From the sequence record MW508890.1: a stretch of 52,770 nucleotides of DNA. The stretch is one strand, 5' to 3'. Each line of letters begins with the position of its first letter. Position 1 is the stretch's first letter. The notes beneath the pieces were generated by a model. That model saw only the letters and a program-made list of their open reading frames with translations. It searched no databases and was not told where the DNA came from. This DNA comes from Phage PEA2-3. The translations under genes were made by a program, and so were the position numbers. Below are positions 2,904-52,770 of the stretch, piece by piece.

Positions 2904-3210
2904 TGCTGGTTACCTTAGAAGTTGGCTTGTAGTAATAAGATGATTCAGTGTGTTGACGTACTGTCAAATAGCCTTCCTCTACAAGTCGGTCAAGACCTTC
3001 CTTGATTTTAGCCCGAGCTGCTTCGGGGTCTTTATAATACTCCGCTGCAGGTACGAGTGTTAATGGTGATTTGGTAAAGTAGCGAGTCGGTAACTCTTTA
3101 TTAAACAGGCCGACTTTTGTAATACCGCGTTGCTTGCAGGCATATTCATTGCCTTCGGCGAGTAGCTTAATACCGTTGCGAATATGCCGCAACAGTTTTG
3201 GCTTTATCAT
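2878..3210 (-). CDS. Hypothetical protein
   Basis: 110-aa ORF overlapping the start of the replication gene by 26 nt; no motif recognised. Confidence 0.4.
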   Translation of the reverse strand: MIKPKLLRHIRNGIKLLAEGNEYACKQRGITKVGLFNKELPTRYFTKSPLTLVPAAEYYKDPEAARAKIKEGLDRLVEEGYLTVRQHTESSYYYKPTSKVTSNDNDESAE

Positions 3211-3363
3211 TGAGTCTCTCCTCTTGTTTGTGGGGCTCTCATTATATACACGTTATTAAACCAGAGTAAATAGACTTTTATGTATTTTATACATTTATAT
3301 CTATTTACTTTCCCCTCCTTTATATACATAATAGACTTACATTCTGCTAAGGAGATACAACCA
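3211..3363. promoter_or_regulatory. Divergent intergenic control region
   Basis: AT-rich spacer between minus-strand 2878..3210 and plus-strand 3364..3801; motif ttatataca occurs twice (about 3243 and 3320). Confidence 0.4.
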
Positions 3364-3801
3364 ATGTTTCACACACTCAAGACCTTTCAGGGCGTCAGTC
3401 CTAATACCGACGAACAAGTAATTGAAGAGCACTTTGTTACCTTTCGTACCAGCGACATCGTTGACATTAGCGTAATTGTACACAATGATACTGCCGAAAT
3501 TGTATATCTTACTTTGCGCGGTACCCAGGACGAAGACGGTGCACCGCCTTGCATGACCTTCAGACGTGAATGGCACGCTGAAGCTGTTGAATCACTGGTT
3601 GCATTGCGTGATGCGCTTCATGTTACACCGACTTACTTCACTGACAATGACGGTAGCTTGTTCCCGTACAGCAACGTCATGTATGTCAATATCAAAACAC
3701 GAACCATGCATCTGGTAAATGGTGTTGCTATTGCACTCACCAAAAACGAGTTTGACCGGTTTTATGACGAGTATCGTAACTGGATGGACTTATATAAATA
3801 G
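3364..3801 (+). CDS. Hypothetical protein
   Basis: Start moved inward from track ORF 3280..3801 to the ATG preceded by RBS aaggagatacaacc. Confidence 0.5.
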   Translation: MFHTLKTFQGVSPNTDEQVIEEHFVTFRTSDIVDISVIVHNDTAEIVYLTLRGTQDEDGAPPCMTFRREWHAEAVESLVALRDALHVTPTYFTDNDGSLFPYSNVMYVNIKTRTMHLVNGVAIALTKNEFDRFYDEYRNWMDLYK

Positions 3802-3811
3802 GAGTAATTAA

Positions 3812-4180
3812 GTGAGTAACCAACCGTCTATGTCGTTAGTGTACCAGGCACCAGCTAAGACTGGTGAGTTTGCAGGTACCATCCACGTAATTCATGCGGA
3901 AGAAATCATCAGCATTGCATTTGTGGAGAAAACAAAGAAAGAAAAAGCTTTACGCGTCACCACTAAAAGTGGTATAATAGACATAACGGATATTGTTGCG
4001 GGCCAGGCACTACGTACAATGTTCAATAACTATTGTCTACTAATTGGTGCAACTATGCACATGCAACCTGAGGAAACAACTGATGGCATTGAACCCACAA
4101 GAACTGGAATCGATGGATACGGAACAGCTGTACGACAAGCTGGCGAATCTGAACCGCTGGATGGCACAAGCGAAAGCTGA
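3812..4180 (+). CDS. Hypothetical protein
   Basis: 122-aa ORF with GTG start 5 nt after aggag; 3' end overlaps the next ORF out of frame. Confidence 0.4.
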   Translation: MSNQPSMSLVYQAPAKTGEFAGTIHVIHAEEIISIAFVEKTKKEKALRVTTKSGIIDITDIVAGQALRTMFNNYCLLIGATMHMQPEETTDGIEPTRTGIDGYGTAVRQAGESEPLDGTSES

Positions 4181-4532
4181 CCAGGAGACGTTGCGCCGGA
4201 CCATTAAAGCACGTCTTGAACGTGACATGATTATCAATCGTGGTAAAGAAGGTACACAAACGGTTGAGTTCAGCATGCATGGCGTACCTGGTAAACTCAA
4301 GGTTGAGCAGAAGGTTAACCGCTCACTAGACCAGAAGCTTGTGCCTGACGTAATGAAGAAGTTACCGAAGACTGTTGTTGCCAAGCTGTTTAAAACCAAG
4401 TATGAAATGTCAGTTACTGCATACCGTAACCTGACACCAGAACAGCTGGCTATCGTCGACCCTGTTGTGAAGACCTCGCCTGGTATTCCGACTGTAACAT
4501 TCACCCCGGCAGCTACGGAAGAAGCCGAGTAA
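4083..4532 (+). CDS. Hypothetical protein
   Basis: Start set at ATG 4083 preceded by gaggaaac; charged protein, no motif recognised. Confidence 0.45.
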   Translation: MALNPQELESMDTEQLYDKLANLNRWMAQAKADQETLRRTIKARLERDMIINRGKEGTQTVEFSMHGVPGKLKVEQKVNRSLDQKLVPDVMKKLPKTVVAKLFKTKYEMSVTAYRNLTPEQLAIVDPVVKTSPGIPTVTFTPAATEEAE

Positions 4533-4537
4533 TTAAA

Positions 4538-4566
4538 CGGGGCTTAGCACAAGCCCCTTGACTTTT
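4538..4566 (+). terminator. Intrinsic terminator
   Basis: Hairpin ggggctt-agcac-aagcccc followed by ttgactttt. Confidence 0.55.
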
Positions 4567-4576
4567 GGAGACTTAC

Positions 4577-4867
4577 ATGGCATCAGATAACAGCAAGAAG
4601 TATAATCTTGAAGACCGTTACAAGCATCATCTTGGCATTCTCAAGTCCGTCATGCGTACTGCAGGAATGGATGAGATGGAACCTCTTTGTAATATCCTTC
4701 CTCGCGTACGTCATATGGTACAGGATAATGTTGTGCTGAATAAAGCTATTGAGCAGGCACAGGCTGAGGGTGTTGCATTTATTCGTGTAACCCACAAAAA
4801 GGATGGCACCAGCCTGGAAGTGGTTAACAGCCGTAACGTATTAATCAAGGCCGGTGATCAATCGTGA
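4577..4867 (+). CDS. Hypothetical protein
   Basis: ATG 4577 follows ggag by about 6 nt; 96 aa. Confidence 0.45.
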   Translation: MASDNSKKYNLEDRYKHHLGILKSVMRTAGMDEMEPLCNILPRVRHMVQDNVVLNKAIEQAQAEGVAFIRVTHKKDGTSLEVVNSRNVLIKAGDQS

Positions 4868-4957
4868 AGATAGCTCATCTGATTCTTGATGCCATACTCG
4901 TTGGGTGTGTGGTATACGGTTTGTACCTGGCAACACAAATAACGGGGTATATCATCC

Positions 4958-5248
4958 ATGGACAATAAGCAGATGCGTGTTATGTTTATGGGCAATCCTG
5001 GTCCGCGTGACAAATGGCTATTTGACAAGCTCAAAGAAAGCCTGATAGGCAAAGAGCTGGTTATTGACTTTACTCCTGTTGAGAAAAGAGCGGCTGAAGT
5101 CTTTCGCAATATCAACCATGACTTAATCGTGATTGACGAGATTGTGGATAAGCCAACAAAGAAAGAAGTCGGTACATATGCGGCCATGTTTGGCGTGCCA
5201 AAGAAAACATATACTCCGCTACACAAACGTAAAGGTAAACGTAAATGA
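4958..5248 (+). CDS. Hypothetical protein
   Basis: 96-aa ORF, lysine-rich C-terminus. Confidence 0.4.
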   Translation: MDNKQMRVMFMGNPGPRDKWLFDKLKESLIGKELVIDFTPVEKRAAEVFRNINHDLIVIDEIVDKPTKKEVGTYAAMFGVPKKTYTPLHKRKGKRK

Positions 5249-5535
5249 GTACTCTAGATTCTCGTGCTAAACTGGCTAAGATTTGTAATGTGACCGTGAA
5301 GGAGTCAACCCTTCCGGAGCTCAAGGGATGTCTCCTTTGTGGGTCAGGCTTCCAGCTTATTTGGGACCCGTACAAGAACAAGGACCAGGCTATGGATGTG
5401 CTTCTGCATTCAGGTATTAGCCTGCAGGTCAACAGTAATGAAGTTGTCGCCAATGGCGAAGTGTTCTTGTTTGAAGACTACGACCGTGCTCATTATTGTT
5501 TGTGTGATGCTATTTGCACTTCTGCCTTAAAATAA
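5245..5535 (+). CDS. Hypothetical protein
   Basis: ATGA start/stop overlap with the upstream ORF (translational coupling). Confidence 0.4.
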   Translation: MSTLDSRAKLAKICNVTVKESTLPELKGCLLCGSGFQLIWDPYKNKDQAMDVLLHSGISLQVNSNEVVANGEVFLFEDYDRAHYCLCDAICTSALK

Positions 5536-5649
5536 ATGTGTACGTCACCACTCACTAATGATATAATGTCTTTAACGGTTAAGCAATAAAGCACATGCGC
5601 AGGGAATAACTCTGGCATACAATTAAACTGGTATACAAGGAAACAAGAA

Positions 5650-6555
5650 ATGACTACAGTATTTGACCGCAGCGGTAAAGCACACGAAGCTCTGGGTTTT
5701 GTTATCTGTGTTGACGAGGGAAACACTTCCCTGTTGACGCAGGGCAAAGTGTATGCCAACCTAGGTTCTTTCGGCGGGGCTTACGATAACTTATGGGTAA
5801 TCGACGACCGTGGTCTGAAGCAGAACTTCAGCGTTGACCGTTTCGCTAAGTACGAATCTGAAAAACACAACTGGGGTATCGCTCGCCGTTCTTACGCTAA
5901 CCTGAAAGAAGGTAAGCTGTATCGTGTTGAGAAGAATCGCCCTGGTGTTCGTTCACTGGATGGCACTAATCAGATTGCATGCGTGGATGAGACCGGTAAC
6001 TGGCTGACATACAATGAAGACGTCTTCCGTCTGTGCCGTCCGTCTCATTCCGAACAGTACATGGTTGCTAAGCTCAAAGCGGCTGCACCTGTCAAGAACA
6101 CTGCAATCAACTTCAAAGTTGAGGAAGAAGTTATTGCAGACGACAAACTGAAGTTTGTTGGTGTTAAGTTTGAACCGAATGGTCGTGTGTACACTTACAA
6201 GTACATCGGCAAAGTAAGTGTAGGGGACAAAGCGGTTGTTGACGTTCGCAATGTTAACTATCCGGAGCTGAACGGTACCAAGCTCGTTGATGTTGTGTCT
6301 GTAAGCGCCGCCAATACTTCTGGCTACAACACTGCAACTCTCAAATGGCTGGTTGATGTGCCTGACTTTAACAAGTATCAGCGTCGTCAGCAGGTTGAAG
6401 ACTTACTGCGTGAAGCGTCAGCACGCCTCGACCTGGAAGTTGAGAAAGAACTGGAACGTCGTCGTCAGACAGTTGTTGCTGACCTGGCAGCATCTAACCC
6501 GGACATCAAAGCACTGCTCGATGGTATCGCTGCATTGAAAGCAGAACTGCTGTAA
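5650..6555 (+). CDS. Hypothetical protein with C-terminal coiled-coil-like region
   Basis: 301 aa, RBS aagga upstream; C-terminal charged heptad-like stretch (EDLLREASARLDLEVEKELERRRQ). Confidence 0.5.
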   Translation: MTTVFDRSGKAHEALGFVICVDEGNTSLLTQGKVYANLGSFGGAYDNLWVIDDRGLKQNFSVDRFAKYESEKHNWGIARRSYANLKEGKLYRVEKNRPGVRSLDGTNQIACVDETGNWLTYNEDVFRLCRPSHSEQYMVAKLKAAAPVKNTAINFKVEEEVIADDKLKFVGVKFEPNGRVYTYKYIGKVSVGDKAVVDVRNVNYPELNGTKLVDVVSVSAANTSGYNTATLKWLVDVPDFNKYQRRQQVEDLLREASARLDLEVEKELERRRQTVVADLAASNPDIKALLDGIAALKAELL

Positions 6556-6603
6556 TAACTTAGGCGGGTGCAAGCCCGCCAGTCTTCCTCCCTGGAGAGT
6601 ACT

Positions 6604-7050
6604 ATGGACCTGTTCAAAACTAAATACATTGTTTATAAAGCACCAACTACTGAAGAGCATAACGTTGTGTATGCGGTTGATGTGATAAATGTCAATGCTT
6701 TCTTCTCTTGTCGTTTCTTTATCAGTACAAAGGCACGTGCTGACCTCAAAACAGAACTTACTGAGCGTGTTGTACACGGCATTGTTAATAGTGCTGAGTT
6801 CCGTAACTTCTGGAGCAAGAAAGGCGTTGAGCTTCCTCCTTACGAGGACGGTAACCTTACTGTTGTACGTGTTGACAAAGCACACAAACAGGTATATAGG
6901 TTCAACGTGTACAGCGACCACCTGAAGGGTGTCACCATCCCTTTGTGGGTAGAAGCATACAACGAAGAGCATGCAGGAGTATTACTCGATGGTGTCATAG
7001 CCAACCTCGGTTTGTCACGGCTATCGTGTCAAGCTGTTAGTGTAAAATAG
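6604..7050 (+). CDS. Hypothetical protein
   Basis: Start moved to ATG 6604 after ggagag; track ORF began at 6568 inside a hairpin. Confidence 0.45.
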   Translation: MDLFKTKYIVYKAPTTEEHNVVYAVDVINVNAFFSCRFFISTKARADLKTELTERVVHGIVNSAEFRNFWSKKGVELPPYEDGNLTVVRVDKAHKQVYRFNVYSDHLKGVTIPLWVEAYNEEHAGVLLDGVIANLGLSRLSCQAVSVK

Positions 7051-7055
7051 TAGTG

Positions 7056-7084
7056 TACTTACCCCATGTAAGTGGTGTATAATA
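7056..7084 (+). promoter_or_regulatory. Promoter-like element (AAGTGG-N-TATAAT family, copy 1)
   Basis: cttacc ... aagtggtgtataat immediately upstream of gene 7111. Confidence 0.45.
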
Positions 7085-7110
7085 CCTCTATACACATGAG
7101 GAGAGAGAAT

Positions 7111-7341
7111 ATGAGCATCAATACTCTAGCACAATTTCGTTCCACACGTAAGCTTGTTGCAAAAGATGACTGCGACTTGTGGACATACGGTATTCATCAT
7201 GACTGGCACATCGTCGAGTCATTCGATGAACCCACAAAATACTCCGTCTGTGGCGAGGAGTTTGACACCCTGGAAGAAGCCGAAGAAGCTCTTTATCGTA
7301 TGTACTGCGATGAAGAATCACTTTACGAGGACTATCATTAA
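7111..7341 (+). CDS. Hypothetical protein
   Basis: ATG 7111 after gaggagagagaat. Confidence 0.45.
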   Translation: MSINTLAQFRSTRKLVAKDDCDLWTYGIHHDWHIVESFDEPTKYSVCGEEFDTLEEAEEALYRMYCDEESLYEDYH

Positions 7342-8225
7342 TGGTTCAGATTGTATCTACTAAACAAGCCGTAGAAAATAAGCGACCTAAGGTCGCTATT
7401 TACGGCGCATCAGGTGTTGGTAAAACCAGCCTGGCTAAGACCTTGCCTCACGATAAGGTTCTTGTCATTAACGCTGAAGGCGGTTTGATGTCGATCGCAG
7501 ATGCTGACATCGACTCTACGCCAATCAATACGTTCAACGACATTTTGGCGCTGTACAAATGGCTTACCGAAAGTAAGGATGCGCAGAAGTATGAGCATCT
7601 GATTTTCGACTCGCTGTCAGATGTGGCTGAAGTTTGCCTGGACTATGAGAAGTCGCAAGTCAACGACAAACGACAGGCTTATGGTAATACCAACGACAAG
7701 ATGATGTATATCATGCGTCAGTTCCGTGACTTGCCTTTCAGCGTTGCATACCTGTGCAAGCTCGAGAAGAATAAGGACGAGGTTACTGGTGCAATGTTGT
7801 ATTCACCTCTCATGCCTGGCCAGCAGCTACCTAAACAACTGCCGTATCTTATGGATGCGGTACTTGCTTTACGTATGACTGCACCTGACGCCAATGGTAA
7901 TAGCGAGCGCTACATCCAGACACAACCCGACTACCAATGGGAAGCTAAGTGCCGTAACGCACCAGGCCGTGAACTGGATGCACGTGAGCCTGCTGACCTG
8001 GGCTGGATTTATGACAAGCTGCAAGGTTATCATCCTTACCAGCTGTGGTACTATCATCCGGAGTCAGATAGCTACCTGCTTCTGACAGGTCGAGCTGCAG
8101 AACAGATGCAGAACGACGACCCGAACGTGCAGCTCACTAAAATCGGTTCGGACGAATCGAAAGAGAAGCACCAAGCCTGGATGGCGAAGAAAGCCGCTCA
8201 AGCTGAGAAAGGAACCAGCGAATAA
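7341..8225 (+). CDS. Sak4-like RecA-fold ATPase (AAA_24-like)
   Basis: Walker A in KVAIYGASGVGKTSLAKTL followed by VLVINAEGG, matching the short RecA-core ATPase pattern as I recall it. Confidence 0.6.
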   Translation: MVQIVSTKQAVENKRPKVAIYGASGVGKTSLAKTLPHDKVLVINAEGGLMSIADADIDSTPINTFNDILALYKWLTESKDAQKYEHLIFDSLSDVAEVCLDYEKSQVNDKRQAYGNTNDKMMYIMRQFRDLPFSVAYLCKLEKNKDEVTGAMLYSPLMPGQQLPKQLPYLMDAVLALRMTAPDANGNSERYIQTQPDYQWEAKCRNAPGRELDAREPADLGWIYDKLQGYHPYQLWYYHPESDSYLLLTGRAAEQMQNDDPNVQLTKIGSDESKEKHQAWMAKKAAQAEKGTSE

Positions 8226-34759: not shown

Positions 34760-37717
34760 TTACGGGCCTAAATCATAAATATCTGCTTTAGCCCCTTTGT
34801 TTTTGTACAGCAGGTATAAGCCCAACCCTCGCAATATTTCGCCAGAGTAAAAACCATAGTACATGGCGTTGCTTTCAGGTCCTGTACCAGTTTCAAGTCG
34901 TAACGCTGGCGACCAACCACCATCCATTACGTGTCCAGGAATACCAGTTATGTCATAGTGGTCTTCCAGCTCATTGACAAGCATGTCCATCAGCTTATCC
35001 AGTCCTGATACTGTTGACCCACAAAGGGCAGACATAGCTGCACCAGCAAGCCATAGTCCGCACATGTGACCTGTGAAGTCTGAAGGGACTGGCAGAGCAA
35101 CACCTTCTTGCGGGAAGTTAGAAGGTGACACACCTCCTGACCTTTCCATGAAGTCAAGCAACCATTTTGACCAGTTATCCACATAAGCAATAAGCTTACT
35201 AGGAACTGGCTTGCCACGGTTTACTAGCTCATACCATCCACGTGCTGCGGAGAAATAAGCACGAGGCTGGTAACCTGACCATGCACTACCATTACCCCAG
35301 TGGTACATAGTAAACGTATCAGGTACACCGTATTTAAAGTTATCCCAACGGTTCCAGATAAAAGCAGACGCACCAGGACCTAGTTGACCAAACTTCTTAA
35401 AGTACCATTGCTGAGAATCGTATAAAAAGTTAACCATGTTGTTCAGCCTGATTGTACCTGCTGCAGTATCGTCATGCGTAAAAACAAACGGATACTGATA
35501 GCCTGGGTAAGGTATACCATGCCAACCATCGAACTGCTTAGAATCAGGGTTATAAATGTTGGAGAACGGAATAACACCTGGCGTGTAAGCAAGGTTATCA
35601 TTCTCATAGTCCAGCACAGTACAGTCGCCTAGCTTAGCTGTGTACGGGTTATCAGCCGAGAAAGTAAGACGATACTTAATCGTATAGCCGATTGGCCAGT
35701 TATAGCGAGGCGGAACATCATTCACACAGTACCAGCTAATACTTGTCGACGTATTAACACCGTCAGGCAGTACAAACGCGAACTGCTTAATCTCACCGAA
35801 TTGTGGGCTGGTAGGTGGTGTACCTGTGTTTTCCTGGTATGACGCCAGCCTGAACTCCCAGGTGCGAATCTGCTGAGTTACCCATCCTGGCGCGGCAGGT
35901 AAATCACGTACCCAACTCCAGCCTTGCGCATCAGTTACTTTTATGCACAACGGACCTGTAGAAGTATACGTCAGCGAGTTTAAAGGTGCCTGGGAAGATT
36001 CCAGTAGCCAAAAGCCTATAATGGCACCTGACGAACTATCCGGTATTGTCATACGGACAGTGTTGCCACGTCTGTTGTCAAGTATGTCAGTACGGTAAGA
36101 CACTGCAATAGTGGCATTGCCATAATCAGTGGATGAACGAATATCAGCTAAGATATACTCAGAACCATCTGGCTTAGTACCTGCGACAAAATCGCTTAAC
36201 GGAATGTCGTAGTTAGCAGGTGAAGCACCAAGAGCAGGTAGCTGTGTGACAAAACGATAGATGTTTTGCTCAACGTCAACCTTTTCACGGTTCATGTACA
36301 TTTCCACCTTGACACTAATATTCTGACCAGCATCATCTTTGCCACCAACCTCTGTACGTATCTTAGCTGTTGGCTTACACTTAAACCATACAGCCTGTTG
36401 CTCCAGAGATGATTGAGCTTTTTGGTTCTGGCGTAGAACTATATAACCATTTTCATCACGTGAATATATAGCTTGTGCCAGTTCAGGATAAGACCAATCA
36501 TAAGAGATACCATCAGTAAACGGAGATGACGCGTGAGAGTCTTGACGGAAGAACTGGTCTTGTTTATCAATATCAATATACTCCTCCAGCGTAAACAGGA
36601 CAGCTTGCCAAGCGTTGTAATACTTTTGCTCGTTAGTAATTCGCCACAGCATATAGCAGCAGTCACAGAACCACAACTCAGCATCAGCAGCATTACCGCG
36701 TTGAAGCTCGCCGTACAATGGAACGTTTACCGGTCTGTTGTGCCATACTTCATTTCGCTTAAGCAAATAACCACCGTGTTCAACAGGAAGCTTAACGGCA
36801 TAGTTAAGCAGATACACACCGTTAACAGTGTGGTCACGGAGTTGAATCTCACCTCTGCGAGAGTCAGGCAGTCCAGTCTCAAGAATCTCGCCTCCCCATA
36901 GCTCATCGTTTTTGCCAGGCAGAACACCAATCTTGTTATTGGTCCATGCAACAATATACTCGATGAGATGTACAGGAGGTTCAGCCGCTGACCAGTCCAC
37001 AGTGTAGCTTGGTTCACCCAGATACCTCGGCCAGTCAATCCAGGCTAACTGATTCCACGGGTCAGCTGGCATGGTAGTGATGCGATAATTGTTGTAAATA
37101 TCGTCCCAGTCAACTTTATTTTTAATAACACGGACACCACCATTAATAGCAGGCCAAGCCATGTGTCCCCTGTGGGCCCAAGTAGCAACATCCAGGTACT
37201 CGCCCCAGAAAGGAGAACCATGAGGGATTTGTGCTTTGCCGTTAACAAATTTAACTGGCACATTTTTATAGCCGCCTTGTGTTGGTGAATCAGGGTTGAT
37301 TGGGAAGCTGGCCAACACAGGCTCTTTGCCATTACAAAGCCAGTTAGCGATCCAGCGACGAGGAGTATCAGGTATTGGGTCCCCCTCGTAATAGTACTTG
37401 ACGTAAGCATTGAAGTATTCAATTGCTTTGTCAAGGTACCGCTGTTCCTTAGTAGCAAGGTACGCATGAATTTCGCCGAGTATTAGCAGCGACTGACTTT
37501 CAGACGGAGCATCACCGTTAGGTTGATACTCCATCATGGTGTGTGCAATAAAATGGCGGTTGTTCGACACTACTCCTTCTGGGTTGAAGATATAATGCTG
37601 ACGCGTAGCGTCGTCAGTTCTGCCAGTATTGCGCTCAAGAAAATGGTGGTGACCTTCGATAAGGCTTTCGACATTAGCTCGATGGTCTGATCCGTCTTTA
37701 AGCAACATCGTGTGCAT
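34760..37717 (-). CDS. Large virion-associated protein, function unknown (possible tailspike or polysaccharide-degrading enzyme)
   Basis: 985 aa, Trp/Tyr/Gly/Asn-rich, inside the structural block; no catalytic motif recognised. Confidence 0.3.
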   Translation of the reverse strand: MHTMLLKDGSDHRANVESLIEGHHHFLERNTGRTDDATRQHYIFNPEGVVSNNRHFIAHTMMEYQPNGDAPSESQSLLILGEIHAYLATKEQRYLDKAIEYFNAYVKYYYEGDPIPDTPRRWIANWLCNGKEPVLASFPINPDSPTQGGYKNVPVKFVNGKAQIPHGSPFWGEYLDVATWAHRGHMAWPAINGGVRVIKNKVDWDDIYNNYRITTMPADPWNQLAWIDWPRYLGEPSYTVDWSAAEPPVHLIEYIVAWTNNKIGVLPGKNDELWGGEILETGLPDSRRGEIQLRDHTVNGVYLLNYAVKLPVEHGGYLLKRNEVWHNRPVNVPLYGELQRGNAADAELWFCDCCYMLWRITNEQKYYNAWQAVLFTLEEYIDIDKQDQFFRQDSHASSPFTDGISYDWSYPELAQAIYSRDENGYIVLRQNQKAQSSLEQQAVWFKCKPTAKIRTEVGGKDDAGQNISVKVEMYMNREKVDVEQNIYRFVTQLPALGASPANYDIPLSDFVAGTKPDGSEYILADIRSSTDYGNATIAVSYRTDILDNRRGNTVRMTIPDSSSGAIIGFWLLESSQAPLNSLTYTSTGPLCIKVTDAQGWSWVRDLPAAPGWVTQQIRTWEFRLASYQENTGTPPTSPQFGEIKQFAFVLPDGVNTSTSISWYCVNDVPPRYNWPIGYTIKYRLTFSADNPYTAKLGDCTVLDYENDNLAYTPGVIPFSNIYNPDSKQFDGWHGIPYPGYQYPFVFTHDDTAAGTIRLNNMVNFLYDSQQWYFKKFGQLGPGASAFIWNRWDNFKYGVPDTFTMYHWGNGSAWSGYQPRAYFSAARGWYELVNRGKPVPSKLIAYVDNWSKWLLDFMERSGGVSPSNFPQEGVALPVPSDFTGHMCGLWLAGAAMSALCGSTVSGLDKLMDMLVNELEDHYDITGIPGHVMDGGWSPALRLETGTGPESNAMYYGFYSGEILRGLGLYLLYKNKGAKADIYDLGP

Positions 37718-47773: not shown

Positions 47774-48263
47774 CTAAAAAGTCCCCAGTAGTGTCGGTCA
47801 AAAGCGAGTTCATAACGTCTTGTGGCAGTATAGCAGGATGGTTACCTGTTTCGATTTTTGGCTTAGTTTTTGGCGCTTTTTGGCGCTCTATATACTCGTC
47901 ATGGGCCTTACAAATGGCATTTACGATGAAATCATGCTGATATGCGTACCATTCATCGTTTTCTGGGTCGTATTTAAGGCCAACATAGTTCATCAACGAC
48001 GACATTACGTGAATGCCTTCGTGGGAAATGGTGTTGTACTTCAGGTCGTCCGGGTGGTACAGTTCGACGACGATTAACAGGTACGGATAGCTAACGCGAG
48101 AGAACGTAAAGGTAGATGCATTACGCGTTTCTCGGTCATTCCAGTTGCCAAAATCAGGCAAATCCATCAGTTTTTGGAGCTCTTCGTGCTCTTTTTCGCT
48201 ACAAACGATAGCCAATTGAGGCGGATATGGCTCTAATTGAACAATTTTCATAATGTTACCCAC
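47766..48263 (-). CDS. Hypothetical protein with HExxH motif
   Basis: 165 aa with HEGIH; first minus-strand gene leaving the control region. Confidence 0.35.
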   Translation of the reverse strand: MGNIMKIVQLEPYPPQLAIVCSEKEHEELQKLMDLPDFGNWNDRETRNASTFTFSRVSYPYLLIVVELYHPDDLKYNTISHEGIHVMSSLMNYVGLKYDPENDEWYAYQHDFIVNAICKAHDEYIERQKAPKTKPKIETGNHPAILPQDVMNSLLTDTTGDFLGD

Positions 48264-48486
48264 AAGTAGGAGACCGTGAGGCCGTTTGATGATTCACATT
48301 AATGATAGCGCGTGGAGGAGAGAAAGTACACCACTTTTTAGTGAGTGTCTACACAATTTCCGAAAAATATAAAAAAATTTTAGAGGGGCTTCACTTATTA
48401 TTGTGTTAAGCAAAAGGTTAGCTCCTGTCGTATCACTCTGATGATGATTGGTCCTGATAAGGAGAAAATACCAAAAAATAAAAAAA

Positions 48487-48560
48487 TTCCGCTGGCTCCT
48501 GGCGGATAGCACCCCTGCGAAATTACCCCCCGCCGCACCTATTTCAATTGAAATGATTAC
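48487..48560 (+). repeat. Direct repeat unit, copy 1
   Basis: ttccgctggctcct ... gcacccct ... ccccccgccg ... atttcaattgaaatgattac. Confidence 0.6.
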
Positions 48561-48662
48561 TCTGGTAACTATTATGATTGGTACAATTACCGTGTGAACT
48601 ACTTCGGCCGTTATAGCACAAAGCGTCTATAATTCAGATTGAAATTATATTTTTAGAAATAA

Positions 48663-48735
48663 TTTCGCCGGCTCCTTTAAGTGGCACCCCTATGTTATTA
48701 TAACCCCTGCCGACCATTTTGGATTGAATAATTAC
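48663..48735 (+). repeat. Direct repeat unit, copy 2
   Basis: tttcgccggctcct ... gcacccct ... cccctgccg ... ttttggattgaataattac; same block order as copy 1, about 176 bp downstream. Confidence 0.6.
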
Positions 48736-49101
48736 ATGTGAAACTATATCAATTGCATATGAGAACCACTCTCAATTGCAAGTGATTATCATTTCTAAAA
48801 ACTTGCATAAACTTACAAATAAAAGGTGTACAATCAAGAGTGATTGGACTATTATATATTTATTGAATGTGATGACCAAGTGACCAGTCAACTGGTCTGG
48901 AGGGTATTAGTATGGTTTAATTTGGGTAGGTAGTACTTAACCAGTCAACAGGTACATCTGGTAGATGTCAATGGTACCTTTTGCTCTTTAACAATCTGGT
49001 AACATGTTTCTTGTTGATAGTAACACTAGTAATAGTTTCAACCAGTGACTATTGGTAACAGTAGTCACAACTGGAAACTAGTACAAGAGGTGACTATTAA
49101 G

Positions 49102-49248
49102 ATGGACAACTACACACTTTGGTATGATACCAATGAAGGGCTTTGGTGTGTCAATATAAACAATGGTCCAGTACCAGACTTTGAGTCAATGGATGTGGAA
49201 GATTGTGTTGACTTTATCCAATCCCAAGTTATTAAATATCAGGAGTAA
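49102..49248 (+). CDS. Hypothetical small early protein
   Basis: Start set at ATG 49102 after agaggtgac; track ORF began at 49045 inside an operator-like inverted repeat. Confidence 0.4.
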   Translation: MDNYTLWYDTNEGLWCVNINNGPVPDFESMDVEDCVDFIQSQVIKYQE

Positions 49249-49252
49249 TAAG

Positions 49253-49426
49253 ATGAAAGTTTTAGAATTGTCCCAAGAAGAACTGGAATTATTGGTTGAC
49301 CAACTGGACACAACCTTATTTATGGAAAGTGAACTACTGGAAGTGGATAAGGAGTATGGAAGGGATGTCAAAGACCTGGAAGTGAGGGTCAAGTTACTCC
49401 AATCAATTCTGGATAAGTTGAAGTAA
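49253..49426 (+). CDS. Hypothetical small acidic early protein
   Basis: ATG 49253 after aggagtaataag; 57 aa. Confidence 0.45.
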   Translation: MKVLELSQEELELLVDQLDTTLFMESELLEVDKEYGRDVKDLEVRVKLLQSILDKLK

Positions 49427-49521
49427 TTTCCAACAATGGGGACTTGGTAAAAGTCCTCATGATTGGATTTACTTGTCAAGGATTGACACCTATCAAAAAT
49501 TCTATCAATGAGGATACATCA

Positions 49522-50076
49522 ATGACTAACTATGTTTACCTGACTTCCGCTTTTTCTGTTGAGTCTGTAAAATCTGGTCTGACTACTGAAAGTCTTGGGA
49601 CTATTGTAGTGCAGATGGATAGTCTTCAGTACTTTGCCAATAACCAGATCATTAAGATGATTAAGTCCCTTAATGATGAAAGTTCTGTAAGTGTCAAGGA
49701 CTCAAAAGAAGTGTTGGTCAAGGCATTGTTTGATGAACTGAACCAACTGGAAGTGGAAGAGGTCAAAGTTGTGGCATCAAAATCTTCCAATGGCGGGGCC
49801 CGGAAGTCATCTGGTCCATCAACCAAGGACACTTGTTATCTGGTGTTTAAGGATTATAACCTGATGGATAAGGAAGATTCCAAATTGGCACTAGTTGATG
49901 CCATGAAAGCCTGTGGGATGGAGGCGGATGACATCAAAGCCAAAAGAGTTATCCAGTCATATATGTCATACTACCGGAATGATGTAAAATCTGGTAAAGT
50001 GACTGAGGGCAAGTCAGTAACTGGCAAAAAACCTGATACTGAAGTAAAACCTGAAACCCAAGAAACTGAAGAGTAA
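49522..50076 (+). CDS. Hypothetical early protein
   Basis: ATG 49522 after gaggatacatca; 184 aa with Lys/Glu-rich C-terminal tail. Confidence 0.45.
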   Translation: MTNYVYLTSAFSVESVKSGLTTESLGTIVVQMDSLQYFANNQIIKMIKSLNDESSVSVKDSKEVLVKALFDELNQLEVEEVKVVASKSSNGGARKSSGPSTKDTCYLVFKDYNLMDKEDSKLALVDAMKACGMEADDIKAKRVIQSYMSYYRNDVKSGKVTEGKSVTGKKPDTEVKPETQETEE

Positions 50077-50140
50077 TTTTTGAGATGGCACTCAAGTAGT
50101 GCCATCAATTGAAATTATTCACAATCAACAGGAGAGAAAC

Positions 50141-50299
50141 ATGCTTAAAATTAAACTGACCAAAGACCAGGCAATGGCTTTACGGGATATGATGATTGAG
50201 CTGGAGAAGATGGGCACTTTTTCTGATAGTTCTCACACTTCAACTCTTGATTATATTGTTGAGTCCATTGATGACAAATTTTCAGGTTCTGAGGAGTAA
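50141..50299 (+). CDS. Hypothetical small early protein
   Basis: ATG 50141 preceded by the conserved leader attgaaattat...tcaacaggagagaaac; 52 aa. Confidence 0.45.
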   Translation: MLKIKLTKDQAMALRDMMIELEKMGTFSDSSHTSTLDYIVESIDDKFSGSEE

Positions 50300-50304
50300 T
50301 CAAA

Positions 50305-50562
50305 ATGACTGACATTGAGATGAAAAAAGAGCTGGACTTTTATGCTGAGCAGTATTGGGCTGAGTGGGATGAAGGTTCACAAGAATTTGCGGAACTGGTG
50401 ATAGATTCAGGAATTGATGAAGTGCGCCAACACGCCTACATCATCAACATGAATCTGGCGTCAATTATGGGTATCATCGCCAGCGAATTTTCTGATGGCG
50501 AGCGGGACCATGAAGACGTTGTAAGACTGGCAAAAGTTATGGCTTGGGTGGATGCATTATGA
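50305..50562 (+). CDS. Hypothetical small acidic early protein
   Basis: ATG 50305 after gaggagtaatcaaa; 85 aa. Confidence 0.45.
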   Translation: MTDIEMKKELDFYAEQYWAEWDEGSQEFAELVIDSGIDEVRQHAYIINMNLASIMGIIASEFSDGERDHEDVVRLAKVMAWVDAL

Positions 50563-50732
50563 AAGATCTGAAATTGACTGAAGACGAATTGGCGCACCTG
50601 ATTGAATTACTGGAATCAAATGCCCAAATTGTGAAAGATCAAATTTCTGACACTGTTGGCGGTTCCAAAGAGTTTGACAACTTGATGGAAGACTTCCGGC
50701 TGACAATTCAGATCGCAACAAAGTTAGTATAG
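50559..50732 (+). CDS. Hypothetical small early protein
   Basis: ATG 50559 overlaps the upstream stop (ATGA); 57 aa. Confidence 0.4.
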   Translation: MKDLKLTEDELAHLIELLESNAQIVKDQISDTVGGSKEFDNLMEDFRLTIQIATKLV

Positions 50733-50800
50733 TTTCAACAATGAACTATCCAAAGTTGTGATAGTTCATGATTGAAATTATATCAACAGGAGAGAGAAAC

Positions 50801-51190
50801 ATGTACAGTGCAAAATGCGAAGATGGTATCTATACCGTATATTGTGACGGTAAAGTACTCAAAGTTCTGCCAAACGCCTTCAAGTTTGAGCAATTCATGA
50901 CGGTGTTGTGGGAGAACCAGGAGATTAGTCGGGAAGACATTATCGACCTGATGAATCCCTTGATGGGGTACCATCCAATTCGTGAGTTTGACAGTCGTCC
51001 AACTTGGTACAAGCTGGAAGATGGCAAAGTCTGGGAACAAGCCTGGGACAGATTTGAAGGTGGTTACGGCCACTGGACGGTTTACGTCGATGGTGATGAC
51101 GCCCAACGCTACTGGGAAGCAATCAAAAATTGTGCGACCCGGGATGTGACTGATCCGGAATACGACGAGTCAAAATTTGAGGTCAAGTGA
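50801..51190 (+). CDS. Hypothetical early protein
   Basis: ATG 50801 preceded by a second copy of the conserved leader; 129 aa, Trp/Tyr-rich. Confidence 0.45.
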   Translation: MYSAKCEDGIYTVYCDGKVLKVLPNAFKFEQFMTVLWENQEISREDIIDLMNPLMGYHPIREFDSRPTWYKLEDGKVWEQAWDRFEGGYGHWTVYVDGDDAQRYWEAIKNCATRDVTDPEYDESKFEVK

Positions 51191-51390
51191 TGCCACTAGT
51201 CAAATTTACGACGGTAGACCTTGCCCATGGATTGCCACCCAAAGCTGAACAAAAATTCTTGACAGTTGAGGAGTGGCATATCTGGTGCCAGTCAGCTCTA
51301 AAATCTGGGGCTAAACGCACTAATGGTGGAAAAGTGTTTACTCGCTTCAATAAAGAGTGTATAATAGTAGTTCAGGTAATGATAGAGTGA
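51190..51390 (+). CDS. Hypothetical small early protein
   Basis: ATG 51190 overlaps the upstream stop by one nucleotide (track ORF starts at the GTG 3 nt earlier). Confidence 0.35.
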   Translation: MPLVKFTTVDLAHGLPPKAEQKFLTVEEWHIWCQSALKSGAKRTNGGKVFTRFNKECIIVVQVMIE

Positions 51391-51617
51391 TATTAGTCAA
51401 GTCCTGGCGCTGACAGGGCTTGATTAAAAGCTGGTAATTAATTCAATCCTGAGTATTTGATGAAAGTCCTCATGCTTGAATTAACCCACAAGTGGAGGCC
51501 TTATGGTCCGCTGTAAACATGTTGTTGAGTATTCTGTTGTGAATCCTGCATATGCTGAAGGTCGGGCGATGAGGAAGCTGGTTGGGGTCTTTATGATAAT
51601 TCTTATGGTATTGGCTT

Positions 51618-51863
51618 ATGTTTTCTAAGGATGATTTATATGACATTGCTCGACGTGTTAATCAACGCGATTTATCTGGTGTTACCGATCTTTTTTCTGC
51701 CGGCACTTCTGACGATGCGGTATTACGCGAAGCGGAGCGGCGCCAAGCAGAAATACAAAGAACTGCAAGCTGCTGGGATTATCAACCCCCGAAAACTGTA
51801 CCGTTAACCTGGGTTGACATGACAATTTGGTTATTGAATAAACTTGGAATAAGGAGCAAATAA
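51618..51863 (+). CDS. Hypothetical protein
   Basis: 81-aa track ORF with no obvious RBS; an alternative-frame small ORF with an RBS overlaps it. Confidence 0.3.
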   Translation: MFSKDDLYDIARRVNQRDLSGVTDLFSAGTSDDAVLREAERRQAEIQRTASCWDYQPPKTVPLTWVDMTIWLLNKLGIRSK

Positions 51864-52042
51864 TGTTTAAATTCTTACAACGTAACCCTGTCAAAGGTGG
51901 CATGCAATACTGGGTGGACATCCATGGCGGTGAGTATATGATGATTGTCCGCGATGGTAAACCTGCTGAAAGCTCTTTCGCTAAAGGTTGCAACGTTTAC
52001 AACCAATTGTTTGAGTTCCTGGTTGAAGGTGATTACTTGTGA
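51863..52042 (+). CDS. Hypothetical small protein (59 aa, below the ORF-track cut-off)
   Basis: ATG 51863 after aaggagcaaata, overlapping the upstream stop (TAATG); read MFKFLQRNPVKGGMQYW ... EGDYL by hand. Confidence 0.45.
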   Translation: MFKFLQRNPVKGGMQYWVDIHGGEYMMIVRDGKPAESSFAKGCNVYNQLFEFLVEGDYL

Positions 52043-52224
52043 TTGGCTTAATCCTGGCAACATGTGTGGCTACTCATGATTGTAGTTACAAAATTGTTGA
52101 ATACAAACCTGAATGGACTACCGTTGAACAATGTGTCGCTGATAGTCCATACACCCTGCTAAATCTTGGTATTATCCCTGCCAAAAATCAGCGTGTCATT
52201 TGTGACGAGCTGAAACAAGATTAA
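52039..52224 (+). CDS. Hypothetical small protein
   Basis: 61-aa ORF with GTG start overlapping the upstream stop. Confidence 0.3.
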   Translation: MIGLILATCVATHDCSYKIVEYKPEWTTVEQCVADSPYTLLNLGIIPAKNQRVICDELKQD

Positions 52225-52652
52225 TTAACGTGATATTGAGTGCCGGGCGCAACGTAATAGTTGTAGACCCGGCAAAATTGTTCCCATGTTAATTCTACTA
52301 GACCCACAAAGAGGCGGTTCGATGCCTCGCTAAAAGTCGTGCCACTTGGAAAACAGTCAATCACATCAGCCTTATTCATCACCACGGTAGGCTGTTTTCT
52401 TGGTAGTTCGTATATCAGTACCGGCATCTTGTTTTGAGCCTTTGCCGATGCCGCACACTGTCTCCACCATGTTCCGATAGACTTGGTATTGTGCTTCTTC
52501 AGTTCAACGCTGAAAAACGGTACACCCAGCAAGTCATCCCCGCCATTAATAGACTGTTGAAGATTGCGCTCAACAGTTAATCCGAACGAGCTATTGAACT
52601 TCTTAGCCATTTTGCGCTCAAAGTTCTGTCCTTTCTGCCGAATATTAACCAT
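52221..52652 (-). CDS. Hypothetical protein, possible PD-(D/E)xK-type nuclease
   Basis: 143 aa; GGDDLLGVPFFSVELKK gives a D ... ExK arrangement; weak motif-level inference. Confidence 0.3.
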   Translation of the reverse strand: MVNIRQKGQNFERKMAKKFNSSFGLTVERNLQQSINGGDDLLGVPFFSVELKKHNTKSIGTWWRQCAASAKAQNKMPVLIYELPRKQPTVVMNKADVIDCFPSGTTFSEASNRLFVGLVELTWEQFCRVYNYYVAPGTQYHVN

Positions 52653-52770
52653 TTATTTAGCCTCGTATACAATTCAAAGATTTGGTAACCTGCAACATTG
52701 ATAAATATTGTAACACATCTTTTTTATAGTGTAAACGTCTACAGATTTATTTATCAATCCGGCTTTTTTA

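Follow-up and report, generated by a model that had tools for sequence, protein, structure and literature searches.

Two small genes of Phage PEA2-3 (MW508890.1), starting at ATG 50141 and ATG 50801, are preceded by leaders that look alike, and the question raised by this locus is what these leaders are. The window, that is the whole 52,770-nt stretch of DNA that was analysed, shares 97% identity with Escherichia phage JEP7 and other Rosemountviruses and is evidently a 52 kb Rosemountvirus (myovirus) genome. Both leaders lie in a small-gene cluster at 49.0-51.5 kb of the window. The homologous block of the relative fHy-Eco03 falls inside an annotated 3.7-kb terminal repeat (PMC8145870), and the direct terminal repeat of this relative holds the small-gene cluster. 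The cluster proteins are ORFans for which a Pfam search returned zero matches, and the gene at 51618-51863 shares 68% identity with the E. coli-toxic Gp05 of fHy-Eco03 (PMC8145870). In Rosemountviruses and Loughboroughviruses, which are biocontrol and therapy candidates against Salmonella and E. coli, the cluster genes are annotated only as "hypothetical proteins".

A sequence-only reading had described the two leaders as near-identical, and their likeness was confirmed: ATTGAAATTAT and TCAACAGGAGAGA are common to both. Local alignment of the two 46-nt leaders gave a score of 22 (31 identical positions, two indels), against a mean of 6.2 (sd 1.4, maximum 16) for ~40,000 pairs of random windows drawn from this genome. 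Exact matches to ATTGAAATTAT lie at 50108-50118, 50771-50781 and 48638-48648, with a single-mismatch match at 48547-48557; at up to one mismatch, there are five matches vs 1.25 expected. The only exact occurrences of the 13-mer TCAACAGGAGAGA in the window are those at 50125-50137 and 50783-50795. Sharing of the 14-mer GATTGAAATTATAT with the control region also holds, but at 48637-48650 and 50770-50783, one base away from where it had been placed. The small proteins encoded behind the two leaders are indeed unrelated (PHROG 35350 and PHROG 37772).

Two things had been missed. The boxes are 3' arms of long inverted repeats, each of which extends back as far as the stop codon of the preceding gene, and three further copies exist (49031-49082, 49423-49473 and 51436-51486). 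The two leaders are two of five copies of an ~50-nt RNA hairpin followed by a ribosome-binding site (RBS), between small terminal-repeat genes. The five copies, their parts and two further features of the control region are as follows.

48541-48554, no strand assigned: perfect 14-bp palindrome ATTTCAATTGAAAT, outside the hairpin family.
48618-48650, plus strand: relic of the E4 (site B) type, 3' half, in the control region; contains GATTGAAATTATAT.
49031-49082, plus strand: E1, within the leader that precedes ATG 49102 of the first small gene; RNAfold z -6.0.
49423-49473, plus strand: E2; 51 bits in the covariance model, RNAfold z -3.8.
50071-50120, plus strand: site A hairpin (E3); RNAfold -22.5 kcal/mol, z -4.5.
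Within the site A hairpin, plus strand: lower stem GAGUAAUUUU/GAAAUUAUUC, 10 bp, from the segment parse.
Within the site A hairpin, plus strand: upper stem GAUGGCACU/AGUGCCAUC, 9 bp, with loop CAAGU, from the segment parse.
50121-50143, plus strand: site A tail, with CACAA spacer, Shine-Dalgarno (SD) GGAG at 50131-50134 and ATG 50141 of a 52-aa ORFan.
50727-50783, plus strand: site B hairpin (E4); RNAfold -27.6 kcal/mol, z -6.8.
Within the site B hairpin, plus strand: lower stem of 12 bp, 2x2 loop CA/GA, and upper stem AUGAACUAUC/GAUAGUUCAU of 10 bp.
50784-50803, plus strand: site B tail, with spacer, SD GGAG at 50789-50792 and ATG 50801 of a 129-aa ORFan.
51436-51486, plus strand: E5, a degenerate copy ahead of a 41-aa membrane-protein gene (ATG 51503).

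The segment parse was uniform in 13 of 14 copies from seven genomes, the exception being the degenerate E5 of the window, which was misparsed. In nearly all copies the first hairpin positions are the upstream stop codon: the 5' arm, T(A/G)(A/G)TTTCAA, starts there, and ATTGAAATTAT forms the 3' arm. The embedded stop codons include UAA, UAG and UGA, and pairing is kept with each. The lower stem (~10 bp, range 9-12 bp) is A/U-rich and conserved, with U(A/G)(A/G)UUUCAA facing UUGAAAUUA. Above it lie a small internal loop (2x2, CA/GA, in most copies; at site A 3x4, UGA/AAUU), then an upper stem of 9-10 bp that varies in sequence, and an apical loop of 4-9 nt. The internal loop is 9-10 bp below the apical loop, a statement of geometry and not of cleavage, and the double-stranded length is ~20-22 bp, or ~two helical turns, in every intact copy. 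The tail after the hairpin consists of a CACAA-type spacer, the SD, only ~8-14 nt past the hairpin end, and the next ATG, 15-23 nt past the hairpin. All copies are sense-oriented and sit exactly between stop codon and RBS, with folding energies of -22 to -28 kcal/mol and z-scores of -3.8 to -6.8 (RNAfold).

At site A, the 5' arm holds the stop TAA (50074-50076) of the upstream 184-aa gene. The covariance-model match (50073-50119) is weak here, at 17.3 bits and E ~0.2-0.4, because the internal loop differs; the ATG lies 21 nt past the end of this match (50119). The Loughboroughvirus ortholog of site A keeps the structure with a wholly different upper stem (CAGACCUCU/AGAGGUCUG). At site B, the 5' arm holds the stop TAG (50730-50732) of the upstream 57-aa gene, paired through G·U, and the model scores 63.1 bits on the plus strand vs 44.4 on the minus strand; in Loughboroughviruses the stems are identical and the flanking genes ~78% identical. 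E1 (34.5 bits on the plus strand vs 19.8 on the minus strand) opens with UAAUAG despite the absence of an upstream gene, and the start codon follows 19 nt past the hairpin. E2 separates the 184-aa gene (ATG 49522) from a 57-aa gene, and its 5' arm contains the stop TAA (49424-49426) of the latter; the upper stem of E2, GGGGAC/GUCCUC vs GACAAC/GUUGUC in relatives, has changed in a compensatory manner. E5, with the tail CACAAGUGGAGGCCUUAUG, scores 20.4 bits on the plus and 22.3 on the minus strand in the window and 38.9 bits in L001, L002 and L007, and this position is intact in BP63, birk and KE24.

Local alignment of the control-region relic with site B gives a score of 19, where random windows give 7.4±1.5 (maximum 17). 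Its fold is weak, at -3 to -7 kcal/mol, and the covariance-model search of the window did not detect it. The box reported at 48545 is a true match, but it belongs to the palindrome ATTTCAATTGAAAT and not to the hairpin family; the palindrome overlaps the -35 of a predicted sigma-70 promoter, TTGAAA-16-TATTAT (48548-48575).

Unbiased genome-wide scans, either with an Lfold-type energy threshold or for near-perfect long hairpins, gave hundreds of matches on both strands and were non-discriminating, and a covariance model, R1, was used in their place. MAFFT misaligned the variable upper stems; the seed of the model was a gapless set of seven real elements with apical loops trimmed to 4 nt, and all statistics were taken from real sequences re-aligned by the model. 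R1 found five loci only in the 52,770 nt, all within 49031-51486 and on the sense strand, both with and without speed filters. Eight of ten relatives have 4-5 copies per locus in the same region, while fHy-Eco03 has one match and KE25 two. A pattern scan of IMG/VR yielded 16 contigs, which were then searched with the model at E<=0.1. Several strong copies were present only in four Rosemount- or Loughborough-like contigs; eight of the other 12 had one match (~21-26 bits) and four had none, and these matches were judged to be chance. Scanning 48200-52770 against Rfam 15 at E<=5 returned no matching family, the sole match being a meaningless 9-bit lncRNA. A host mobile element was rejected as the source, since the site B 82-mer is absent from E. 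coli chromosomes and matches two phage-sized "plasmid" contigs only.

Pairing, with compensatory changes, is what the copies and genomes conserve. In the upper stem, both sides have changed in 12 of 21 pairs. Paired cells amount to 92.9%, as compared with 75.8% for shuffles and no more than 48% for slid controls, and the covariation score of 0.511 vs 0.186 was matched by none of 500 shuffles, although these shuffle statistics overstate independence because the alignment had been made to fit the structure of the model and the copies share a common descent. Selection on the fold itself is indicated by the compensatory upkeep of the upper stem, taken together with a uniform folding energy (-20 to -25 kcal/mol). 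Mismatch pairs in unique sense-strand rows comprise 47 G·U vs 9 A·C, all nine A·C pairs being confined to the two outermost columns; mismatches are G·U rather than A·C, and the sense strand is therefore the folding strand. Sense RNA is also stabler than antisense in 30 of 34 unique copies (by a mean of 4.4 kcal/mol), and plus-strand bit scores lie 10-20 bits above those of the minus strand for most copies. G·T tolerance tells which strand folds, and the folded molecule may be RNA or single-stranded DNA.

We then considered what such modules might do. The leaders had been proposed to be promoter-plus-RBS cassettes; a repeated regulatory module with a strong RBS is borne out, whereas the promoter is not. 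The ATTGAAAT box, taken as part of a sigma-70 promoter, forms base pairs with the stop-codon region of the gene before it. With TTGAAA as the -35, the -10 lands on GAGAGA or AGAAAC (the RBS), and transcription would start at or past the ATG. TGaAATTAT at sites A and B is readable as an extended -10, but this motif is not kept in the other family members (E1, E2 and E5), which have TTGGATTTAC, CTGGAAACTA and TTGAATTAAC. A consensus promoter scan found none at any of the five modules. In the literature on the Rosemountvirus and Loughboroughvirus genera we found no promoter, transcript or hairpin study; the published promoter lists for these genera are software predictions.

Intrinsic terminators share with the modules a hairpin directly after the stop codon. 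Here, by contrast, the stem is ~21 bp long, A/U-rich and interrupted, and a U-tract is missing after the full hairpin: a U-run is absent after four of the five hairpins, and the U/A-rich 3' sequence itself belongs to the paired lower stem. Only E2, with the tail GATTGGATTT, passed a lenient terminator scan, and terminator-like sites in the region were no commoner than in shuffles (3 vs 3.2 expected). These observations bear on the proposal that the hairpins are attenuators or terminators, each module perhaps re-initiating transcription, in which case they would be true promoter-terminator cassettes of the PeSL (promoter-early stem-loop) type, with an own transcription unit per gene or gene pair. 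The PeSLs of T4-type phages (Arbiol et al. 2010, PMC2839356; Comeau et al. 2014, PMC4122927) are, as here, stable stem-loops that together with an SD occupy the interval from stop codon to ATG (PMC2839356). They too are clustered among ORFans in a hypervariable region, and their flanked genes are deleted or replaced by recombination between copies. Moreover, PeSL stem-loops without classic U-tracts cut reporter expression like a strong terminator (PMC2839356), which, with the terminator-like E2 and the possible extended -10 at sites A and B, speaks for this proposal. However, the sigma-70 promoter that defines a PeSL (-35, -10 and AT-rich upstream element) is missing here, and a transcript begun at site B would have a leader of ~10-18 nt only. 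The stems also differ, being A/U-rich and two-part with an internal loop where PeSL stems are polyG/polyC, and the lineage is a 52 kb Rosemountvirus, not a T4-type phage. Weighing both sides, we consider attenuators or terminators an unlikely explanation.

Comparison with relatives placed homology breakpoints at 49102, 49420, 50143 and 50803, which are module edges. In phage emiel, the E3 hairpin is joined via the shared leader to the gene that stands behind E4 in the window; emiel evidently carries an E3xE4 deletion from recombination between the site A and site B leaders. On this comparison, the modules can be said to be homologous-recombination linkers for the deletion, insertion and replacement of ORFan cassettes, a role attributed to them because the copies share 20-30 nt of identity. 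An integron attC-like site was rejected, given that the annotated relative has no integrase and that the crossover in emiel falls outside the hairpin core, within the unstructured leader. A relative's annotation lists a Sak4-like annealase, a Cas4 exonuclease, an SSB and RusA; RNA polymerase, RNase III, integrase and transposase are all absent from the annotation of this fully annotated relative.

Might DNA then be the level at which the repeats mainly act, whether as linkers for recombination, as single-strand or cruciform recombination sites, or as remnants of a small mobile inverted-repeat element, with any RNA fold being incidental? The breakpoints at module edges, the inter-module deletion in emiel and the half copy in the control region would all fit, and single-stranded DNA hairpins also tolerate G·T pairs. 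Yet a merely incidental fold sits poorly with variable upper stems kept by compensation at uniform folding energy, and with copies that are without exception sense-oriented and placed exactly between stop codon and RBS. Nor does the emiel crossover mark a defined hairpin site, and mobile remnants are hard to reconcile with the missing integrase and transposase in the one relative's annotation and with the absence of copies from E. coli chromosomes and from the rest of the phage genome. A mainly DNA-level role is, in our judgement, very improbable.

The reading to which we give slightly better than even credence is that the five copies are intercistronic punctuation modules in a co-transcribed cluster, with hairpins that are most likely host RNase III signals, and that they double as recombination linkers. 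Host RNA polymerase would co-transcribe the cluster genes from promoters in the 48.3-49.0 kb control region; we infer co-transcription only from the lack of convincing internal promoters and terminators. The hairpins would act post-transcription, most likely as host RNase III signals of the T7 early-region type. Cleavage at the internal loop would split the polycistronic RNA into units, each closed at its 3' end by a protective hairpin and headed at its 5' end by an unstructured leader with the RBS. An RNase site had been named earlier as an alternative to the promoter, and the anatomy agrees with it: a hairpin of ~20-22 bp with an internal loop resembles a T7 RNase III signal. Typical substrates of E. 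coli RNase III are two helical turns long, and internal loops restrict the enzyme to cleavage of one strand, leaving protective 3' hairpins (PMC1540722).

We infer RNase III cleavage of the modules by analogy with T7, whose early precursor contains five RNase III signals (PMC3867540). These signals (R0.3, R0.5, R1, R1.1 and R1.3) are likewise five paralogous hairpins, set between small-gene cistrons and with one in the leader of the first gene, in a region transcribed by host RNA polymerase, as would be the case for the cluster here. They too comprise ~two helical turns, with an internal loop dividing the lower stem from an upper stem of ~10 bp, a stop codon in the 5' arm, and SD and ATG ~16-21 nt past the 3' arm. 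In the fold of T7 R0.5, which is directly comparable with site A, the gene 0.4 stop codon is part of a lower stem of 9 bp; above this stem come an internal loop and an upper stem of 10 bp, and SD and ATG follow 16 nt after the hairpin. A search of T7 positions 400-7700 with our covariance model revealed no significant homology, the best matches being R1.1 and R0.5 (11.1 and 10.9 bits, E ~1). The two systems also differ in where conservation lies: in T7 it is found in the upper stem and along the loop's 3' side, and here in the lower stem and internal loop, most internal loops being symmetric 2x2.

Conservation of sequence in the lower stem and internal loop corresponds to no known RNase III requirement and could point to a sequence-specific factor. 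The hairpins might accordingly be bound by a sequence-specific RNA-binding protein, whether encoded by the phage (a translational repressor or an endoribonuclease) or supplied by the host and distinct from RNase III, and this protein would co-regulate translation or decay of the flanking cistrons. A lower stem and CA/GA loop that are nearly invariant among paralogs and across two genera, beside an upper stem that is free to vary, form the pattern usually seen where one part of a hairpin is recognised by its sequence, and the short distance from hairpin end to SD would suit such a regulator. On the other hand, the embedded stop codon dictates some of the conservation in the lower stem, site A is conserved despite its different internal loop, and no candidate protein was found, the cluster proteins being ORFans without a Pfam match. 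We think an RNA-binding regulator quite unlikely. Very much a long shot, in our estimate, is a further variant in which the invariant lower stem and CA/GA loop are the site for a dedicated phage factor, be it an endoribonuclease, an RNA-binding regulator or a single-strand DNA recombination function. If this were true, the hairpins would delimit an array of exchangeable host-takeover ORFan cassettes in the terminal repeats of a lytic phage, functionally integron- or PeSL-like but built on a new element.

The kind of element described here is ordinary, and in this phage group it has not yet been described. For RNA biology, punctuation by host RNase III would be a second, independent arrangement of the T7 style, in an unrelated myovirus. 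The modules offer a testable map of the operon structure of the cluster, and they mark natural, tolerated insertion points for payload genes. Finally, cassette exchange at the modules explains why cluster genes differ between near-identical phages.

The leaders immediately ahead of two small genes (ATGs at 50141 and 50801) had been read as a shared promoter-plus-RBS cassette, or else as a site for a translational regulator or RNase. The leader repeat is genuine and far above chance: the two 46-nt leaders align with a score of 22, compared with 6.2 ± 1.4 for random window pairs (~40,000 pairs, maximum score 16). The leader box ATTGAAATTAT has exact matches at 50108, 50771, and 48638, while the 13-mer shared ahead of the two ATGs, TCAACAGGAGAGA, has exact matches at 50125 and 50783 only. 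The 14-mer reported in the control region is present, although its coordinates were off by one base. ATTGAAATTAT belongs to a long inverted repeat, of which it forms the 3' arm; the 5' arm, T(A/G)(A/G)TTTCAA, starts at the stop codon that ends the upstream gene. The elements concerned are as follows.

Repeated elements and related features of the window
48541–48554: perfect 14-bp palindrome ATTTCAATTGAAAT, overlapping the -35 of a predicted promoter, TTGAAA-16-TATTAT
48618–48650: 3'-half relic of the site B element, with no stable fold
49102–52224 (+): run of small ORFs containing the repeated leaders
49031–49082 (+): E1, hairpin of matching design, z -6.0
49423–49473 (+): E2, hairpin of matching design, z -3.8
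50071–50120 (+): site A (E3) hairpin, RNA fold -22.5 kcal/mol, z -4.5; lower stem 10 bp, internal loop 3x4, upper stem 9 bp
50727–50783 (+): site B (E4) hairpin, RNA fold -27.6 kcal/mol, z -6.8; lower stem 12 bp, internal loop 2x2 (CA/GA), upper stem 10 bp
51436–51486 (+): E5, hairpin of matching design but degenerate

A segment-by-segment parse of copies from seven genomes recovered a single blueprint in 13 of 14: a lower stem of ~11 bp and an upper stem of 9–11 bp, separated by a small internal loop and capped by a loop of 4–9 nt. The degenerate E5 of the window was parsed incorrectly and was excluded from the seed of R1, a covariance model of the family built from seven elements whose apical loops were trimmed to give a gap-free alignment. 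In phages BP63, birk, and KE24, an intact E5 lies directly at the stop codon. We also noted an extra 14-bp, G+C-richer hairpin, UUAGUCAAGUCCUGG...CAGGGCUUGAUUAA, at 51393–51427 (+), between the stop of the 66-aa gene and E5.

Module position follows rules. In almost all copies, the 5' arm opens with the stop codon of a real upstream ORF (62–219 codons); UAA, UAG, and UGA are all seen, the latter two pairing via G·U. A CACAA-type spacer and then a GGAG or GAGG Shine-Dalgarno precede the next start codon, which lies 15–23 nt from the hairpin (45–49 nt for E2). Given these rules, the 'leader module' is the hairpin 3' arm plus spacer and RBS; among the modules, tails are most alike at sites A and B. 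E2 alone has a long tail (48 nt, 49474–49521, +), and since this holds a further small hairpin, UGUCAAGGAUUGACA, together with a promoter-like TTGTCA-16-AAAAAT, the 184-aa gene that follows may have its own control.

R1 found only these five loci in the whole window, with or without speed filters. Among the loci of ten relatives, eight carried four to five copies each, always within the small-gene cluster, and the remaining two had one match (fHy-Eco03) and two (KE25); most copies scored better on the sense strand than on the antisense. By pattern scan, multi-copy IMG/VR contigs were Rosemount- or Loughborough-like genomes only. The 82-nt module of site B is carried by 57 phage records from this group and by no chromosome; outside phages, it was found only in two phage-sized E. 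coli 'plasmid' contigs. One, NZ_JBVNBN010000003.1 (52,771 bp, about the length of the window; E. coli RefSeq assembly), matches the 82-mer at 100% identity, and the other is NZ_CP067310.1 (53,474 bp). Apparently, a lytic Rosemountvirus genome was deposited as a plasmid, via a carrier state or contamination. No Rfam family matches the hairpin, and the family is previously undescribed for Rosemount/Loughborough-like phages.

The fold appears to be under selection. In the best 21 matches on the sense strand, which amount to 14 distinct rows, 92.9% of cells were paired, compared with 75.8% after shuffling and at most 48% with slid partners, in an alignment fitted to the model structure. Both sides had changed in 12 of 21 pairs, and the covariation score was 0.511 versus 0.186, attained by none of 500 shuffles; the 14 rows are related by descent. 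Two examples are independent of the model: the E2 upper stem is GGGGAC/GUCCUC in the window and GACAAC/GUUGUC in relatives, and that of site A is GAUGGCACU/AGUGCCAUC in the window and CAGACCUCU/AGAGGUCUG in Loughboroughviruses. In unique sense-strand rows, non-Watson-Crick stem positions comprised 47 G·U versus 9 A·C, all nine of the latter confined to the two outermost columns, and for 30 of 34 unique copies the sense RNA was stabler than its antisense counterpart (mean difference 4.4 kcal/mol). The sense strand is therefore the folding strand. The simplest reading is that the folded molecule is RNA; single-stranded DNA of the sense strand is a possible alternative.

Geometry, conservation, and a consensus scan leave the promoter reading unsupported. 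With TTGAAA as -35, the -10 lands on GAGAGA or AGAAAC and the start falls at or after the ATG; an extended -10 (TGaAATTAT) is not retained in E1, E2, and E5. The scan reported no promoter at any module, and terminator-like sites occurred at shuffle-level frequency, E2 being the sole module flagged. The box matches in the control region have other explanations, namely the palindrome and the relic copy. CAATTG-centred boxes recur there, including the palindrome and a tandem 23-nt unit, ATGTGAAACTATATCAATTGCAT/ATGAGAACCACTCTCAATTGCAA (48736–48781), and might serve an early regulator as operators. Upstream of E1, a near-palindrome, ACCAGTCAAC(T/A)GGT, occurs twice, 57 bp apart (48883–48896 and 48940–48953).

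By contrast with the promoter, the RNase site also raised by the sequence-only reading is a plausible candidate. Since their anatomy matches such signals, the modules would most likely act as E. coli RNase III-type processing signals. RNase III substrates typically span two helical turns, and internal loops confine cleavage to one strand, leaving protective 3' hairpins (PMC1540722). There are five signals of this type in the T7 early precursor (PMC3867540; PMC6938266). Folded directly, T7 R0.5 shares its blueprint with site A: the 5' arm of its 9-bp lower stem holds the stop codon of gene 0.4, an internal loop leads to a 10-bp upper stem with a 5-nt loop, and a Shine-Dalgarno and an ATG follow, the latter 16 nt on. 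In both phages, one copy (E1 here) also precedes the first gene, within its leader. R1.1 and R0.5 are the best sense matches of the model in the T7 early region (~11 bits, E ~1), and the likeness is analogy, not homology. One fully annotated relative lacks its own RNA polymerase or RNase III, so host enzymes would carry out transcription and cleavage.

The modules also mark recombination points. Homology with relatives breaks at the edges of modules, at 49102 (ATG after E1), 49420 (E2 start), 50143 (ATG after E3), and 50803 (ATG after E4). AEV23, fHy-Eco03, and KE25 carry different genes behind an identical E4 hairpin. Phage emiel has its E3 hairpin joined, via the shared leader, to the gene located after E4 in the window; the three genes and E4 that lie between the two leaders here have been lost there through recombination within the ~20-nt shared leader. 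PeSL (promoter-early stem-loop) cassettes of T4-type phages show the same behaviour (PMC2839356), but are defined by a sigma-70 promoter that the window modules lack. A Sak4-like ssDNA annealing protein, a Cas4-domain exonuclease, an SSB, and a RusA resolvase are annotated in the phage group (L028 (KE24) 34685–37631; L007 5394–5825) and could drive short-homology cassette exchange at the modules.

The genome is that of a BP63-like myovirus (Rosemountvirus); 48300–52770 shares 97% identity with Escherichia phage JEP7 and 91–97% with many Salmonella and Escherichia phages of 52–57 kb. The small + strand ORFs diverge from - strand nucleotide-metabolism genes across an ~840 bp intergenic control region. 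The homologous block of fHy-Eco03 carries 11 genes and has been annotated as a direct terminal repeat of 3.7 kb (PMC8145870); ~48490–52770 corresponds to it (L004 2232–5930), and by homology the repeat would be collapsed to a single copy in the present record, as in most records of related phages. A pair of GC-rich ~55-nt blocks (48487–48540 and 48663–48716, repeat D4 at each start) sit just inside the inferred boundary and could be a packaging, end, or injection signal. The cluster proteins are ORFans, with no Pfam matches and only PHROG families of unknown function. The 81-aa product of 51618–51863 (+) shares 68% identity with Gp05 of fHy-Eco03, a protein shown by experiment to be toxic to E. 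coli (PMC8145870); this homolog is probably mis-annotated in BP63, birk, and KE24, since a 55-aa ORF is annotated there instead. From the genome context, terminal repeat, ORFans, and toxic homolog, we infer that these are 'early, host-takeover' genes.

Taken as a whole, the hairpin family would be best filed with two known kinds of element, the intercistronic processing hairpins of T7 type and the recombination linkers of PeSL type, and the modules are useful in the annotation and engineering of Rosemount/Loughborough-like phages.
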